NCBI GenBank assembly: GCA_030390025.1
Contig: CM059431.1
Coordinates: 94,242,001-94,306,000 of the forward strand
Direction of reading: 5' to 3'
DNA length: 64,000 nt
Source: Squalus acanthias
Taxonomy: Eukaryota
Part shown: positions 42,020 to 54,647 of the stretch, in pieces
How the letters are laid out: the number at the start of each line of letters is the position of its first letter
How positions within the stretch are numbered: the first letter of the stretch is position 1
Position numbers and translations under genes: made by a program
Notes under the pieces: model-generated
Databases searched by the model: none
Seen by the model: the letters and a program-made list of their open reading frames with translations, nothing else
Told to the model about the DNA's origin: nothing

Positions 42020-42270
42020 CATTTAAAATGGAGATGAGGAGGAATTTCTTCTCTCAGCGGGTCATGAATCTTTGGAATTCTCTACCCCAGAGAGCTGTGG
42101 AGGCGGAGTCATTGAATATATTTGAGCTACAGGGGAGCCAAGGGTTATGGGGAGTGGGTGGGAAAGTGGCGTTGAGGCCAATATCAGATCAGCCATGATC
42201 TTATTGAATGGCGGGGCAGGCTCAAGGGGCCGAATGGCCTACTCCTGCTCCTATTTCTTATGTTCTTATG
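42020..42270 (+). mobile_element. CR1 3' end fragment
   Basis: FKMEMRRNFFSQRV; GGCCGAATGGCCTACTCCTGCTCC; TTCTTATG tail. Confidence 0.85.
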
Positions 42271-42279
42271 TTGTTCTTA

Positions 42280-42950
42280 TGTTGGCAGGCCTGTCAGAAA
42301 GCCTAAATGCAATGTCAAGGAGCATGGAGGAGTTCAGCTCCAGTCTTGCACAGGGCTTTGCGCGGAGCTTGGAGCCCATCATTTCCAGCATGGAAGAGGA
42401 GGCCAGATTCATTAACGCACTTGTGGACCCAACCATCATGCCGTGTCTGATGGCCAAAGTCTCAGCTTCCATTGCAGCACAAGCAAAAGCCACCCAATGT
42501 CTGAGTTTTGCAATGGAACCTCAGACTGAAGTCATGCAAGCGCAGCTTGCTGTCACACAAGCACAGACTGCTGCCATCATGGCTGGTTTGCAGGGTGCAA
42601 CAGCAGTCCAGCAGCCTGTACTCCATCAGATTACTAGGATTGTTGAGGCGCTATCCCAGGGGAATGGCAATGGATCCATGGAGTTTCACTGCAGGTCTGG
42701 TTGCAAGAGGTGGCAGAGTTCAATGAGCCTCCTTTGTAAAGCGCAGACACGTCAGACACTGCTCCTGCCTCAGACTGCGGTAAGAGAAATGCTCTCAGAA
42801 GACCCTAGGTGGGTAAGGCCTCCTGCTAAGAGCCCTTCTGCTCCTCCCTGTGCGAGCAGCTTGTCCTCTTCTTTGTTGCCTCTGCTCCAGCTCCTAGTCA
42901 TGCTGCAGGCCAAGGGGGATGACAACTAGAGCACCCATGACCAATGTTCC
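42280..42950. mobile_element. Harbinger internal remnants (Myb gene exon 3 on +, transposase 5' on -)
   Basis: LSESLNAMSRSMEE..ASIAAQA homologous to 22620-22980; 42690-42830 homologous to 55840-55980. Confidence 0.7.
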
Positions 42951-43963
42951 CTTTAAGCCGTGCGGCCAGTGCGGCTTCTAAATAGAAAAACAGTGCATGC
43001 GCCGAATTTTGAATGGACCACACACTTAACATTGCCTGTGACTGGGAGGAAGTGGTCTGACCAGAAACCTTGACGTCAGAAGCATGGCCTTCTCCACTTG
43101 CAGCACCACTTCCTGTCATCTCACTAACTTTAACGAACTCAAAAATCTCCAAACAGTTGCACAAACTTACACAGAGCCAGTAGAAATCAAAAAGCAAGTT
43201 ACCTTTAAATAGCAAAATGGGCACTACGCGACCAAAGTTCTAAGCCTAAGCAAAACAACTCATCTTAAGTTGTTACCATGGCGTCAGCTTGGTGGGTTTA
43301 CTAATGACTAAGAGATAAGACCAGAGATGCGTACATGAAGAACGAAGCATCCAAATAGTATAAAGACACGCCATACTGCACCCAAAAATTAGACCTCTTG
43401 GCACAGTCGGAGGTCCATAACCTTGATGGCAGCCCATGAAGGTCAAGTCTGATCACCTTGAAATCCGCGGGTAAGCCAGGCTGTATTAATTGCTTTTCAT
43501 TTAATGTAATGCTGTAGAGCAGTTGTGTAAAAACAATACTGTTATAAGTCAATATATATAAAATCTTGTTGTTTAAAACCACTTGGGCCAAAGCCACGCG
43601 GAATTTTTTGTTGCAGGGCTAACAACCCTTTATTGTGACAATAACCACGGGAAATCCGCTTTCAGAAAGTAATTTACTGGCTGTGAAACACTTTGTAGAT
43701 ATGATGTGCTGGATTCCACTCCAAGTCAGGTGAGATTGTGGCAGAATTGGTGGGAAAATGGAGTGATGAGGTCCATTGCTGCCTCTATCTTGATCTCAAT
43801 TTCCTCCTTTCACTAGGACTGCCACTGACGAACACTTACCCAATCAACCACATGCACCTCCTAAATTCCTGATGGATTATCCTGCTATCTGCCCCAGTTA
43901 CCGTCACTCCCGGAACTGCCTGGTGAAACGTGACAGTAGGCCTGGGTATCAGCAGTAATGGAC

Positions 43964-44746
43964 TGTAAGATTCTAAAAACTATAATAAAACCGCTGCTAC
44001 CGTGTGGAGATTGAAGTTCAGAATGAATTGTGAAATGGTTATGGAATACTCGGAAGTCAGCATGTTCCTTTGTTTGTGAAGACACAAAATGGCAGAAGTC
44101 AGCAGGGGGTCCTTTGCCTGGTGGTCAGTATGGTCCTTTGTGTGTAAGACCACATGGACAGGAAAGAGAAACATGAGTGACAAGGAAGTCCCGCCCCCAC
44201 ACACATCACAGGAACATGAACATCTCATGCAGAAGGAACTCCAGTCAGGGAAAGTTTGGAGTGAAACTGACATATCAGAGGGAGGCAGACAGTGATATAC
44301 GAGTGGGGCCGGCAGAAAGGCCCGATAAAATAATTGACCCAGAGGCGGGAAATTCAGAACAAAGAAAGAAGTATGGATGAACAGATGAACAAAGAAAGCT
44401 GGCCAGTCTATGTTTCAACTTACGACTTTTCCTGGACAGATCACCCAGAGATAAAGGAGCATGTATAAAAGTTGGACATAAGAGCTTAGATATTGTTAAA
44501 GTGTACTTTTATGTACGGTTGACTTGGGATATAAATCGCCAGAAGGTAGCATATAAGTTGCTGGGGTGTACTTTTATGTACAGTAAATTGGAAGCATATT
44601 GATTACGAGAGAATGCTTCTATGTACACTTGAAATTTGAACTATAGTGTAAATAAAGACCAATTTTATTGATCACATACTTATCTGTCATTGTTACGCTT
44701 ATTTGTAATTCTCAAAGTCTGAACAGTAGTAAGAGAATGGCTTACA
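43964..44746 (+). repeat. 5' LTR
   Basis: Direct repeat of 49776-50558; TATAAAA at ~44465; AATAAA at ~44651. Confidence 0.95.
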
Positions 44747-44750
44747 TAAA

Positions 44751-44768
44751 TGCCGATCATGAAGGGAC
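44751..44768 (+). promoter_or_regulatory. Primer binding site, probably tRNA-Arg(TCG)
   Basis: TGCCGATCATGAAGGGAC versus TGGCGACCACGAAGGGAC (complement of the vertebrate tRNA-Arg-TCG 3' end as recalled), 15/18 match, 4 nt after the LTR. Confidence 0.65.
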
Positions 44769-44798
44769 TTTGAGGGGAAAAAGCTTTTTTTTATAACA

Positions 44799-45795
44799 AT
44801 GCCGGACAAGAAAGTGAGAAGTATGGAGGATTTGGTAGCAAAATATATTAATGGAAAAATCGATAGAGATAAACCATGGGTTAGAGATATTGTGCAGAAC
44901 GATGACCCTGTACAAAAACTAAAGGAATGGATGGAAGGTCTGTTAGGAAAGGTGCCATGGTATAAAGCGATGTGGCTGTTAGCCTATCAAAGACAATTAG
45001 TTCAAAATAAGAAAGTGATGGATGAACAATCCAGAGAGATTGAGCAACTGAAACGAAAGGTGAACGACAGGGAAGTGGAGATGGACCACCAGTTAAAAGA
45101 GTTAGAGGAATTAAAAGAACAGAGACAAGCTGAAAAAGTGAAAGGGGAAAGTAACGTGGAATACTTGCAGTGTCAGGTGATGGAGTGTTCGAGGAGAGCT
45201 GATGAATGGGAGAAAAAAAGCCATAAGCAACATCGGCAGGCAGCCTCGGCTGAGGAAGTGTTAAGCAATGTAAAAACAGCATTGAAGGTGTAGCGGCAAC
45301 AAAAAGAGGGCGAAGCTGGTCACACTAAATGCCGAAAGGAAATTGAGCGATTGAAAGCTCGTCTATCAGTAGAGAAGGGGGATAATATGCTTGATGACCC
45401 CAGAGGAAGGAGATATGGAGGAGGAAGTAGAGGGGGAAGGAAAGTGGTCTGAGGATGAAACACAATACGGGGAATTGAGAATCCCGCCGGAAGTACCGGA
45501 ACCCCCGGTCCCACCGCCATTGAATCCTATGAGGCAGCAGAAATTTGGTTCCCCTGTCAGAGGACAGAACAGAGGGGTGTTAGAAAGTGATTATACCATA
45601 CCGTATAACACGACGCCATTGAAAGAAATGCTGGGTGATTTAGGGAAACTAGAAATGGGAGGTGAACTCCAAGGACATTTCATTGCAGTCGAACAAAGGG
45701 CAGCTGTAAGTGAAATGGATGAAGATGTAAAAATGAAGTTAACCCCGCCAGAAAAGGGAGGGAGACAGAATAAGTTGCTGAGGCAATTTAAGTGA
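44799..45795 (+). pseudogene. gag: gag-like gene, truncated
   Basis: ATG just after the PBS; long E/K/Q-rich coiled coil, stop at 45291, frameshift, Pro-rich linker, then PMR...YTIPY resembling a capsid N-terminus. Confidence 0.65.
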
Positions 45796-46879: not shown

Positions 46880-47400
46880 ATGGTGCAAGATTACCAGCTG
46901 GGTAGAAGTCATCTCATGCAAGTCAGCCACGGCCAAGACCCTAGTTGAAGGGGTATTCTACAGATGGGGATGTCCTCCGTGATAGGGTCAGGCCAGGGAA
47001 GTCTTTTTACAGGTCAGGTAATGCAAGCCACTCTGAAATTGCTAGGAATTGAAGGGAAATGGCATGTAACCCACAACCCACAATCATCGGGGATTGTGGA
47101 AAGAATGAACTGTACATTGAAGTTGGCCCTGCGAAAGGAATTAAACGAACAACACACTAAGTGGGATAAGGGACTTTCCCTAATCCTTATGGGGATACAC
47201 AGTAACAGATCCAAAGGATCGGGTCATTCCCCTCATGAATTGGTAACGGGGAGACCCATGCGAACCCCCACATACCTGTTGGTTCCCACTCTGACTGATA
47301 AACAAACTAAGGAGGTGGCTCAGGACAAATTCCTGAGCGACCTGTGGGGATCTTTAAAGGAACTGAACTTGAGCCGCCCGTAACATTGGGAACAACATCG
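46880..47400 (+). pseudogene. pol: Integrase catalytic core remnant
   Basis: WVEVI..SATAKTL..RWG; SGQGSLFTG..LGI..HVTHNPQSSGIVERMNCTLK..WDKGL..SPHELVTGRPMRTP (rve motifs). Confidence 0.9.
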
Positions 47401-47505: not shown

Positions 47506-49600
47506 ATGGGGAAACTCCTCTACGCATTGAACGCTTTGATGCTCGTAATGGTTGGGATTGAACTATATCAGGAATCACAGCAGCTTGGAAACAGCACCAA
47601 TGGAACCATAACCTCACTGGATACAGGGTTTTCTGTTGTAAATGAGATGAATGTAACAATTAAAAATCAAACTATAACATGTTATAATTGGACAGTGAGA
47701 GTAACGGAGCAGAGGGTGCACGAGGGGCAAGGGATTTGTTTAAAATGTTCAAATGAGACCACTCCAAACGAGACAATCCTAGAACTTCGGTTTGCACCGG
47801 GTTAGACCACAAATAACTTGAGATTGAGGAAGGCAAGATAAATCGTAGCTACCCCGTTAATTGATGGGACAAGTTACTGTTGGACAAATTTCTGGTCAAG
47901 TAATCACACAGGAATATATATGTGTGTAAACAGAAATTTCTCCCATGATGATCCTCAAATTAAAAATTGTTATGATAATATTCAATGCCCTGATCAGTCC
48001 AAAGAAGCCATTCAATTAAAGGCGAAAGAGAAACCAGGGCCACCCGATGAAAGGAGTGAAAAGTGCCCCACCCCATTCCTTGCTCCAGTTAACGGATTGG
48101 TGTTGGTTCTGAGTGAGTTGTCAATGTTACATGATGTTGTATTAGATGCGAGGGAGGTTATTATCAATATGTCTAGTCTTGCCTTGCCAACATGGTACAG
48201 TGAACACACTAGAAACTGGTTAAGAGATAAAAAAGTGCAGTTAATAAAAACCTTTTGGAAGGAAAATAGTGATCAGGTCCCGAAATCATTGGTACAGAGG
48301 AGAAAGCGCAGTGTGCTTAATAATATAGCAACAATGTGGAATAGGATTGGTAAATACAGGGGATATTATGAGCCTGAACTATCAATTGGGAAAATTGAGA
48401 GAAAAGGTACAGCAGGCATTAAGAAACCAGAATAGCATAGGTAAAGTACAATTAGAAGCAGAATTGACCTTGATAATTCACATGCAAGGGTTGGTCAAAT
48501 TGTTGGAAAATCAGGCACAGGCCATAAACAATTTGACAAGGGAGGATAGAAACGCCTCTGATCAGGCAGCACGAAATGATGCATGCACGATGATGAGTTC
48601 TTGGATTCTACAGGACATAGGGAGGAATTTGAATAGAATAGCTGAGGGAAGGGTTCCAATTTGGATGGAAGATAAACACCTTAAGGCAGCAGAAAGGTAT
48701 CAGTCAAACTTGACAGTGTGTCAGTTGCAGTGTCTTCATTGTGGTACGTGTCGTGCCACATGAATGTAATCAGACTAACGATGATAGTTTGATAGGAATC
48801 ATATTAAGCATGCCCGTAATGTCCAAACCTTGGGCACCACTGCAGGTGTATAAGGTAGCCAATATGGGTTTCCTGAAAGAAGGTGTTTTAGATAAATATA
48901 CATCATTGCCTGGATATGTTGTTAAATATAACCAATCTCTCTATGAGGTAAAATTACATCTATGTAAGACCCAAGGAAGAACCACCATGTGTATGTATAA
49001 TGTCTTGGACGATGAAGAGCCGTTATGCGGATTTAACTTGACAAGGATGTCTAAGTATCAGTGTCAGGTCACTGCCGTAAGGTCGAAACAATATACCACC
49101 ATTGTTTATAAGGAACAGGGGGTATTGTTGGACCACCACAGAAACAAAGTATAAATATGGGCAAAAGAATGCTACAATATGTCTGGTATCTAACAGTACT
49201 ATGTGTATTAAACCTAAAAGGATGGTAAAAATCAGGAACAGGACTATTCTGCCTTTAATGGATCAGAATCCAATGCATGTTAAGGCATCAACCGGGGTAG
49301 ACGATATGGAGAAATACGTGTCCAAATTTGGATATGGGTTGCCTTGGATAAATTAAAATCTCACTGAGTTTGTGAAACAGATTGGAGAAGTGGGAAGGAC
49401 ATTCTCAGTATTAATGCCAGAATAATAACCTCGTTAATGAACGAGGCGACTTCTTGGTGGGATTTGAGATATAATCGTATAGACTTAGCTCCGTGGATAA
49501 GACTGTGCTCACAAGCTCTGCTATGGTTACAGCTAATGTGTGTGATTGTGCTTATGTGGGAATGCGGGCAAGACATAAACAAAGAGAGAACAAGTGAAGA
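47506..49600 (+). pseudogene. env: Envelope/fusion glycoprotein gene with stops and frameshifts
   Basis: Signal peptide MGKLLYALNALMLVMVG; many N-x-S/T sequons; furin site RRKR at 48298-48309; heptad region; Cys-rich region; C-terminal hydrophobic anchor WIRLCSQALLWLQLMCVIVLMW; candidate splice acceptor TTACAG ending 47495. Confidence 0.85.
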
Positions 49601-49775
49601 CAATTTAAGCGTACGAGGGAATTGTTATGGGATCAGCTTTAATAATGTGAAATGGGGGTATAGATATTGTATTATAGGGGATAAAAGGGGACTATGTCCG
49701 ATCGGAATACATACTGCTCCAACTCTGGTGAAATGTCTGCACATGAATAAACATGAGAGACATTGAAGGGAGGAC

Positions 49776-50558
49776 TGTAAGATTCTAAAAACTGTAATAA
49801 AACCGCTGCTACCATGTGGAGATCAAAGTTCAGCATGAATTGTGAAATGGTTATGGAATACTCGGAAGTCAGCATGTTCCTTTGTTTGTGAAGACACAAA
49901 ATGGCAGAAGTCAGCAGGGGGTCCTTTGCCTGGTGGTCAGCATGGTCCTTTGTGTGTAAGACCACATGGACAGGAAGGAGAAACATGAGTGACGAGGAAG
50001 TCCCGTCCCCACACACATCACAGGAACATGAAAGTGTCATGCAGAAGGAACTCCAATCAAGGAAGGTTTGGAGTGAAACTGACCTATCAGAGGGAGGCAG
50101 ACAGTGATATACAAGGGGGGCCGGCAGAAAGGCCCTATAAAAGAATTGACCCAAAGGCGGGAAATTCAGAACAAAGAAAGAAGAACGGATGAACAGATGA
50201 TCAAAGAAAGCTGGCCAGTCTATGTTTCGACTTACGACTTTTCCTGGACCGATCACCCAGAGATTAAGGAGTATGTATAAAAGTTGGACATAAGAGCTTA
50301 GATATTGTTAAAGGGTAGTTTTATGTACAGTTGACTTGGGATATAAATCGTCAGAAGGTAGGGTATATGTTGCTGGGGTGTACTTTTATGTACGGTAAAT
50401 TGGAAGCATATTGATTGCGAAAGAATGCTTCTATGTGCACTTGAATTTTGAACTATAGTGTTAATAAAGACCAATTTTATTGATCACATATTTATCTGTC
50501 ATTGTTACGCTTATTCATAATTCTCGAAGTCCAAACAGTAGTAAGAGAAGGGCTTACA
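49776..50558 (+). repeat. 3' LTR
   Basis: Preceded by polypurine tract GAAGGGAGGA; same length as the 5' LTR. Confidence 0.95.
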
Positions 50559-53369: not shown

Positions 53370-54647
53370 GCCAAGCTCTCTCATAACAGGTGGGAGCAGC
53401 AATGCACGGGAGGAGGACTGGCTGACCTATACCCGCTGACCGATTTGGAGGCCAGAGTGCACAGGATCGTTGCCAGCCAGGTCACAGGTGCCGTGGCCAC
53501 TGGAGAGATCCACCCCCTTGGAGACAGCAATGGTATGTTCATCAGCTTTTTCTCCTCTCTCATACCACTTGCCTCTCACAACACCAGCCTTTTACACTTT
53601 CAATCCAACTAACAGTTTCTAGCCCTTGCTCCCTTCCTGCCCCCCCACTAAAGCCACTCTTGTATCTTCCTGCTTTCAGATACTGAACCACCAGCTGACC
53701 AGCCTGTCCCTCAACCTGCCAGTGGCAGCGATGTGCCAGACAAGGAGGAAGAGGAAGCCGGAGGCTCACCGCCTGCGTGTCCCGAGGATGACACATCCGA
53801 CACTGGGGCCACGCCTTCCCTGGAGGGGAGCAGGGGGTTAGGGTCTGATGAGGGCATGCACACTGAGCTCATGGGTGCAATGGCAAGGGTGTCCGACAGC
53901 ATGGATACACTGGCTAGGAGCGTGGAGGAGTCCACCGCCAGCACAGCTGTCATCTATGCGCAAACCCTTGAACCCATCCTTGCCTCGTTGCAGAGGATGG
54001 TGGAATTGCAGGGAGACTGTGGTGATCCAGGGCCCATGCCGCGTGTAATGGGTGAGGTGGCAGGATCCATTGCAGCACAGGCCAACGCAACGCAACGGTT
54101 TAGTGCTGCAATCGAGTCATTGGCTGGTGCCATCCAGTCTCAGACTGCTCTCATGCAGTCTCAGATTGATGTCAAGCAAGTGCTGACTGCTGCCATCCTT
54201 GCTGTGTCGCCCACAGTCCCACGGGGATCTCATGGTACCACAGCAGGCCAGCAATCTGTGCTCGAGTAGATTGCTCCGGATGCTGAGGTACTGCCCCGGG
54301 GGAGTGACAGTGTGTTGGTCGAGCAGGAAGGTGCTGTCCTCTCTCAGGATGACAGCATTCCTGCTCCCACCACTGCCACTTCCCCATTGCACTTGTCATG
54401 GCCTGCAACACAGCCAGCCCAGACTGCTGCCGCCCATGCAGAGTTGGTGCAGTCTGCAGCCGGGCCCTCCAGGCCCAGAGCTGGTCGAGGGCGTCCTTCA
54501 AGGCCATCTGCAGTCTCTGGATCCAGAACTCAGCAGCCTTCCACCAGCCTTGCTGCAGCCACTGGGGCCACATTACAGAGGAGCAGTAGGGTGGGAAGGG
54601 CGGAAGTGCGCAAGGGATGGAGATCACCCTCGAAGGCCCAGCAGTAG
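53370..54647 (+). pseudogene. Harbinger Myb/SANT gene exons 2-3 (exon 1 missing)
   Basis: Acceptor TCGCAG|GCCAAG; donor GTATGT ~53533; acceptor CTTTCAG ~53679; homologous to 22270-23290. Confidence 0.8.

Follow-up and report, generated by a model that had tools for sequence, protein, structure and literature searches.

The locus considered here raises the question of what kind of domain stands at the N-terminus of the envelope glycoprotein (Env) encoded by a broken endogenous retrovirus (ERV) of Squalus acanthias. The window, that is, the whole stretch of DNA that was analysed, is 64,000 nucleotides long (contig CM059431.1 of assembly GCA_030390025.1, positions 94,242,001 to 94,306,000, forward strand). 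An earlier note on this DNA proposed that positions 47680-47935, read through two in-frame stop codons, encode an immunoglobulin (Ig)-like domain at the N-terminus of Env. It seems fairly likely that this Env has a surface subunit with an Ig-like N-terminal head, likely receptor-binding, followed by a class I fusion subunit, and an Ig-like fold of residues ~60-177 is itself quite probable. The env gene and its parts, with residues numbered from the ATG, are as follows.

47506 to ~49766, + strand: broken env gene, from its ATG, in frame 1 at the start (translation)
47506..47568, + strand: env start with a hydrophobic, signal-peptide-like stretch, residues 1-21 (putative signal peptide, from the translation)
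47569..47682, + strand: glycan-rich N-terminal stretch, residues 22-59, with sequons at 29, 32, 49 and 54 and Cys59
47683..48036, + strand: probable Ig-like domain, residues 60-177 (hhalign comparison with host Ig exons, sub-threshold Pfam and PDB matches, AlphaFold)
47689-47706, 47734-47751, 47770-47793 and 47845-47859, + strand: predicted strands A, B, C and D
47866-47883, 47905-47931 and 48001-48018, + strand: predicted strands E, F and G
47803..47805, + strand: in-frame TAG at residue 100, in the loop after strand C
47839..47841, + strand: in-frame TAA at residue 112, just before strand D
48037..48297, + strand: Pro-rich linker and conserved pre-cleavage region, candidate F2 counterpart, with EKCP at 48058 and NGLVLV at 48091
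48298..48309, + strand: RRKR furin-type cleavage motif, aligned to RPRR, RSKR and RKRR in relatives
48310..49766, + strand: frame-broken fusion subunit (list of open reading frames (ORFs) and motif coordinates)
from 48310, frame 1, + strand: fusion-peptide-like stretch
from 48374, frame 2, + strand: heptad region
48714-49154, frame 3, + strand: beta-rich, Cys-rich region
49081-49356, + strand: piece of env in frame 1
49488-49559, frame 3, + strand: transmembrane (TM) stretch

Frame 1 with the stops read as X contains VRVTEQRVHEGQGICLKCS ... NHTGIYMCV, which exactly reproduces the peptides quoted in the earlier note through the stops at 47803 and 47839. In the 3.7-Gb genome, the first 930 bases of env have at least 41 DNA matches with 87-100% identity, and 30 of these copies (family A) were fetched and aligned for all conservation counts. 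The TAG position is a sense codon in 27 of the 30 copies and a stop in three, namely the window copy and two near-identical duplicates, and the TAA position is a sense codon in 28 and a stop in two. Since sense codons fill the two stop positions in so many copies, the read-through of frame 1 is the ancestral coding frame. The ATG at 47506 is retained in most genomic copies. The ratio of nonsynonymous to synonymous substitution rates (dN/dS) over residues 60-142, calculated pairwise from the 18 of 28 copies without indels (153 non-independent pairs), is 0.38, and therefore part of the family A divergence arose under purifying selection on the domain. The glycan-rich stretch at 47569-47682 gives a dN/dS of 2.15 among the copies, which is too noisy to interpret because it comes from only 38 codons with a dS of 0.022, and so may reflect noise or diversifying change. 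The window copy of env is dead and non-functional: two stops interrupt the domain in frame, and beyond it the reading shifts several times, going from frame 1 into 2 near 48330-48435 and into 3 near 48714-48763, with a further frame-1 piece at 49081-49356.

The ancestral frame carries the B-strand and F-strand patterns of Ig domains described in the earlier note. C81 in strand B (LKC) and C140 in strand F (YMC) are 59 residues apart, within the range of ~55-75 residues for conserved B-F cysteines of the Ig clan, and the F-strand GxYxC motif is aligned by hhalign to DxGxYxC of the host domains. The earlier note staked the domain on the recurrence of the two cysteines and GxYxC in other copies, and they are kept in 24-28 of the 30 (C81 in 26, G136 in 28, Y138 in 24 and C140 in 28). 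W126 and W130 are present in all 30 copies, and C78 and C125 in 26 each. C81 and C140 would form the canonical B-F disulfide, and C78 and C125, which are both present in family A and its sister family B and both missing from the bamboo-shark protein P0007, may form a second one. The B-F spacing is 59-74 residues in all lineages in which both cysteines were found, and 61-74 in lineages other than A. The heavily glycosylated stretch said to precede the domain is real: five N-x-S/T sequons lie at residues 29, 32, 49, 54 and 61 and four more inside the domain, predicting about nine N-glycan sites in and ahead of it, and C59 is conserved in 28 copies. The segment 47680-47935 contains strands A to F; what is probably strand G comes later, at ~48001-48018. 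The stretch separating strands C and D contains RLRKAR (47821-47838), which conforms to RxxR, the minimal motif for furin cleavage; its residues K109, A110 and R111 are retained in 27, 26 and 30 copies, respectively, and the motif is absent from family B.

Related envs occur in other lineages of cartilaginous-fish ERVs, which supply the alignments for a profile comparison. A HMMER scan of 1.84 billion representatives with a natural copy open for 556 codons as the query gave 19 proteins at E ≤0.001; of the 17 that were looked up, 16 belong to sharks or skates and the remaining one to Xenopus tropicalis. Most of them align only from query residue 156-187 on, where the conserved CP...NGLVL region before RRKR begins. 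The N-terminal domain aligns to the skate protein P0008 (E 2e-5) and weakly to P0007 (E 0.006), which is labelled 'Ig-like domain-containing protein' in UniRef. In the Squalus genome, the P0008-like copies of family B show 74-79% identity to a skate protein in all 150 of the 5674 candidates that were scored, and more distant, P0007-like copies form lineages C, D, E and F (47 matches). Two proteins, P0004 and P0013, have a different Cys-rich N-terminal head, with an hhalign probability (Prob) of 0.1-1.6% against the domains of A-F and host Ig. An alignment (A3) that put the F-strand Cys of C-F under a later family A Cys was rejected by the W+9/W+10 spacing, trimmed and rebuilt as A4. A word-index search with the first 320 residues of env found no longer relatives, and a near-relative search gave a single shark fragment lacking the N-terminus.

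A host profile made of 20 Ig_3 exons, each from a separate locus of this genome, was compared with the viral profiles by hhalign. The joint profile of families A and B matches host Ig with a Prob of 87.5% (P 3.6e-6, 75 columns, score 35.7), and the profile of all lineages with a Prob of 88.9% (P 2.4e-6, 80 columns, score 37.3). The A+B alignment is in register, with strand C, GxYxC and the Cys of strand B each opposite its host counterpart. Reversed profiles gave Prob values of 0.3% and 0.6%, and the highest score among 60 column shuffles was 19.9 (Prob 7.2%) for A+B and 12.8 for all lineages, indicating that the similarity to genuine Ig domains is specific relative to these controls. The A+B result ranged from 51 to 87.5% over six option sets and from 57 to 92% over ten random halves of the host set. 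Twenty host fn3 exons reached only 0.1-0.8% across the viral profiles, with 0.1-0.4% for the A+B and all-lineage ones; as far as sequence profiles can tell, the resemblance is specific to Ig rather than fn3. Weaker matches were obtained from the libraries. Ig_3 (PF13927) is the commonest Pfam family, matched by 5 of 23 domain sequences (E 0.042 for L012, a family A copy, and 0.079-1.5 for all four family B copies), and Ig_2 (PF13895) is matched by two of the 23 (best E 0.0048). A profile search of the PDB gave nine sequences at E ≤10, six of Ig type and three transcarbamylases; the Ig-type matches are CRTAM (0.27 and 0.54), human cytomegalovirus (HCMV) UL141 (0.78-1.4) and a VHH (0.94), in register at both cysteines.

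A different account holds that the head is a lineage-specific, disulfide-rich glycoprotein domain without an Ig fold, in which V.EG..ICLKC and GxYxC arose by convergence or chance, and the results that weigh against an Ig-like fold are those that speak for it. None of the Pfam Ig models reaches its cut-off among the 23 domain sequences (L012 scores 16.1 bits with Ig_2, cut-off 27, and 14.8 with Ig_3, cut-off 30), and the window translation with X at the stops has no Pfam Ig match at all, so that the HMMER check proposed in the earlier note came out below threshold. The C-strand Trp, which that note had already failed to see, is lacking in family A, where the position falls within Leu/Glu/Leu/Phe of ILELRF; Trp does occupy the aligned position in family B and in lineages C-E. 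Single-lineage profiles score poorly against host Ig: family A alone gives a Prob of 28.2% (P 6e-4, 68 columns), lineage D 41.4% (P 2.7e-4, 49 columns), family B 1.2% (P 0.045, 22 columns), lineage C 2.3% (P 0.021, 37 columns) and the joint C-F profile 1.9% (P 0.025, 38 columns). AlphaFold, run twice with alignments of 13 and 23 rows, produced models of low confidence, with a predicted local distance difference test (pLDDT) score of 54.0 and a predicted template modelling (pTM) score of 0.51 for the first and 49.5 and 0.42 for the second, and strand G (166-171) is seen only in the first. Foldseek found nothing at E ≤0.001 with either model (best 0.074 and 0.068), the best Z of a VIA-wide search with model 1 was 4.3, under the level that the note of the tool calls meaningful, and the ESM Atlas gave no usable match for family A residues 22-200 and scores of only 0.76-0.78 for family B, mostly to Ig clusters, which serve only as a lead. 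On the other side, the A+B profile matches host Ig with both cysteines in register, and this match is lost against fn3 and on reversal and shuffling. The independent weak matches from Pfam, the PDB, Foldseek, VIA and the ESM Atlas all fall on Ig families, the top rows of Foldseek with both models and of VIA being almost all Ig-superfamily (IgSF) domains. Both models share an all-beta core with strands B 77-82, C 89/92-96, D 114-118, E 121-126 and F 134-142. The structure prediction suggested in the earlier note thus agrees on the strands but has low confidence and no significant structural match, and the structure searches are consistent with an Ig fold, not proof of it. A head without an Ig fold is accordingly judged unlikely.

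Two other accounts fare worse. The only PDB phmmer matches of the natural copy were eight CD44 hyaluronan-binding-domain sequences (E 1.0-1.1, residues 74-150, including NHTGVY), which would suit a Link-module or C-type-lectin-like, CD44-type carbohydrate-binding domain. An E of ~1 is at chance level, however, and these matches were put down to chance once CD44 had dropped out of the PDB profile search in favour of Ig domains. Moreover, the Link module has two helices, whereas both low-confidence models are all-beta in this stretch. Such a domain is extremely improbable. Capture of host Ig domains by viruses is an established phenomenon, and the Ig-like character of the domain would fit an exon acquired recently from some identifiable IgSF gene of the host. 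Against this, hhalign aligns the domain to the 20 host Ig_3 exons with ~20% identity, the best solved relative stands at E 0.27, and skates and sharks carry the domain in the sister family as well (P0008, P0021-P0023), so that recent capture is very improbable. No close host donor turned up in a search of the host genome that was not exhaustive and in which ERV copies crowd the scored candidates. Since the sister family in skates and sharks has the domain, any capture predates the split of families A and B.

If the Ig-like reading is followed, residues ~60-177 of the ancestral protein would have folded as an Ig-like beta-sandwich, closest to the I-set/Ig_3 type, which may ultimately have been captured from a host and would most likely have served as a receptor-binding head. 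Families A and B share their whole cysteine pattern and are matched by hhalign with a Prob of 39.5% (P 3e-4, 88 columns), and lineages C and D are clearly related (98.1%). Comparison of A/B with C-F gave a Prob of 1.0% (A with C 0.7%, A with D 1.1% and B with C 1.6%). Because hhalign finds no relation between them, the Ig-like motif common to A/B and C-F may reflect either deep divergence or separate acquisitions. A broader evolutionary scenario, in which an F-type class I fusogen of cartilaginous-fish retroviruses was made self-sufficient for entry by N-terminal fusion of an anciently acquired IgSF domain, is speculative and on the whole improbable; such a fusion may have occurred repeatedly.

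The surface subunit opens with the domain as its first folded unit, after which come the Pro-rich linker, the pre-cleavage region, which all relatives conserve, RRKR, a hydrophobic stretch, the heptad region, the Cys-rich beta region and the TM stretch. All the elements of a class I architecture (signal peptide, RxKR, fusion peptide, heptad and TM) are found by translation and alignment to relatives, and the CP...NGL motif is retained across lineages. The fusion part shows 33% identity to the shark protein P0002 over 259 residues. The positions 48714-49154 match Fusion_gly (PF00523) with an E of 0.0018 and 17.1 bits (cut-off 29.8) at model positions 270-357, and none of 16 relatives matches this model. 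The profile search of the PDB found no F protein, and a whole-genome scan with PF00523 gave, under a stricter first look, three matches of 15.5-17.2 bits. Because there is one sub-threshold match, none among the relatives, no F protein from the PDB and three weak matches in the genome, the Env is not filed as a proven PF00523 member. Thus, in the proposal of a domain joined to the front of an F-like fusogen, the placement stands, as the domain is N-terminal to CP...NGLVL and RRKR, but the likeness to F is weak. The Env appears from its sequence to work like a class I, F-type fusogen, and it is not filed as a proven lokiretrovirus or F member. The glycosylated Ig-like head may bind a receptor and control triggering of the fusion subunit, in which case one glycoprotein would both attach and fuse.

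The env gene belongs to a provirus with the following further features.

43960..44746, + strand: 5' long terminal repeat (LTR), a gap-free blastn match of 787 bases to the 3' LTR, first spotted as a 300-base repeat
44763-45293 and 45373-45795, + strand: gag-like open frames, broken (ORF list)
46949..47383, + strand: putative C-terminal remnant of integrase (ORF list; 'integrase' is a reading of the sequence)
49772..50558, + strand: 3' LTR, paired with the 5' LTR

The LTRs are 93.9% identical over 787 bases with no gaps (blastn) and surround remnants of gag, pol and env as expected for a provirus. The gag-like frames at 44763-45795 match no significant Pfam family, and the remnant at 46949-47383 has no Pfam match. 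The end of this remnant aligns with an ORF upstream of family B env (44% identity over 34 residues, E 4e-7). The window provirus has lost most of pol, and only the integrase tail precedes env; it is an old, internally deleted ERV. The retroviral context is secure because the family A copy L012 has, directly upstream of env, a zinc knuckle (zf-CCHC, 26 bits, cut-off 20.8) and a protease (RVP, 23.3 bits, cut-off 20.7) that both exceed the Pfam cut-offs. In L012 (2820-3962, - strand) gag and protease lie ~340 bases from env, the place taken in the window copy by the integrase tail only. Family A copies are internal-deletion derivatives, and family A may have spread as a non-autonomous element.

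Two other copies, L002 and L003, are 99-100% identical to the 5' part of the window env and carry at least one of its two in-frame stops; one sits ~160 kb upstream within the window's contig, the other in an unplaced contig. Since they are near-identical and have stops in common with it, segmental duplication, not reinfection, produced these copies of the dead provirus. Family B is very abundant in the genome, and 34 of the 150 scored matches to a 144-residue env probe lie in an open frame of 789 residues (loci L031-L050). This abundance and these open frames suggest recent activity of family B. The sawshark gene models P0006 and P0023 join pieces of env to host-like genes ('Niban 1-like' and 'zinc finger protein ZFP2-like'), and these fusions probably arose as artefacts when genes were predicted across ERV insertions. 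The window provirus lies between two paralogous open frames, at 42126-42929 and 53652-54269 on the + strand (38% identity over 150 residues, E 1e-22), with no Pfam family at E ≤0.01 for either.

If the fold and the role are true, this Env would be a modular one-protein entry machine that couples an Ig-type head to an F-like fusogen, and it would bear on the kinship of retroviral and mononegaviral glycoproteins and on the swapping of receptor-binding modules. ERVs with an env of this type would then also be recorded from cartilaginous fishes. In practical terms the finding is of modest value, since the copy is a dead pseudogene, and it serves mainly for annotation and as an evolutionary lead.

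Judged by Env features, the closest described group is the lokiretroviruses, which are defined by a reverse transcriptase phylogeny that places them as sister to all other retroviruses; the window copy has lost this gene. According to the main text of Wang and Han (2020; PMC7947760), the lokiretrovirus Env likewise has a signal peptide, an RxKR-type site, a fusion peptide, a coiled coil and a TM segment. It resembles PF00523 with an E of 2.2e-7, as that text reports (PMC7947760), whereas the match in the window stays below the cut-off at E 0.0018 with none of the 16 relatives matching. Amphibians are among the reported lokiretrovirus hosts, and one relative of the window Env comes from Xenopus; nearly all the others come from sharks and skates. 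The texts of PMC7947760 and PMC9040795, supplements aside, contain no mention of cartilaginous fishes, sharks, Chondrichthyes or immunoglobulin, and that of PMC7947760, again supplements aside, no mention of a receptor. A literature search on ERVs of cartilaginous fishes found no description of an Ig-like Env head.

With host IgSF domains (Ig_3, Ig_2 and I-set), the viral domain has in common the V.EG..v.L.C pattern of strand B, GxYxC of strand F, the Cys spacing of 59 and the profile similarity. Family A differs from them in lacking the C-strand Trp, in a six-residue Trp-rich insertion (CWxxFW) in the E-F turn, in a long, Cys-bearing F-G loop and in sub-cut-off Pfam scores. Ig-like receptor-binding parts are known from other viruses, including the receptor-binding domain of the gammaretroviral surface subunit, herpesvirus gD and HCMV UL141. 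In these, as is predicted for the window Env, a beta-sandwich head of the viral surface protein makes contact with the receptor, but they stand on other fusion machineries or on separate proteins, and the analysis brought out no sequence relationship to the domain described here. In paramyxoviruses and pneumoviruses, the class I F protein is cleaved at a furin site and has a short N-terminal subunit before the fusion peptide, the Ig-like domain II of F sits in F1 and not at the N-terminus, and attachment is mostly the task of a second protein (HN, H or G). Compared with these F proteins, the window Env has an extra domain of ~115 residues before its F2-like part, within the same polypeptide.

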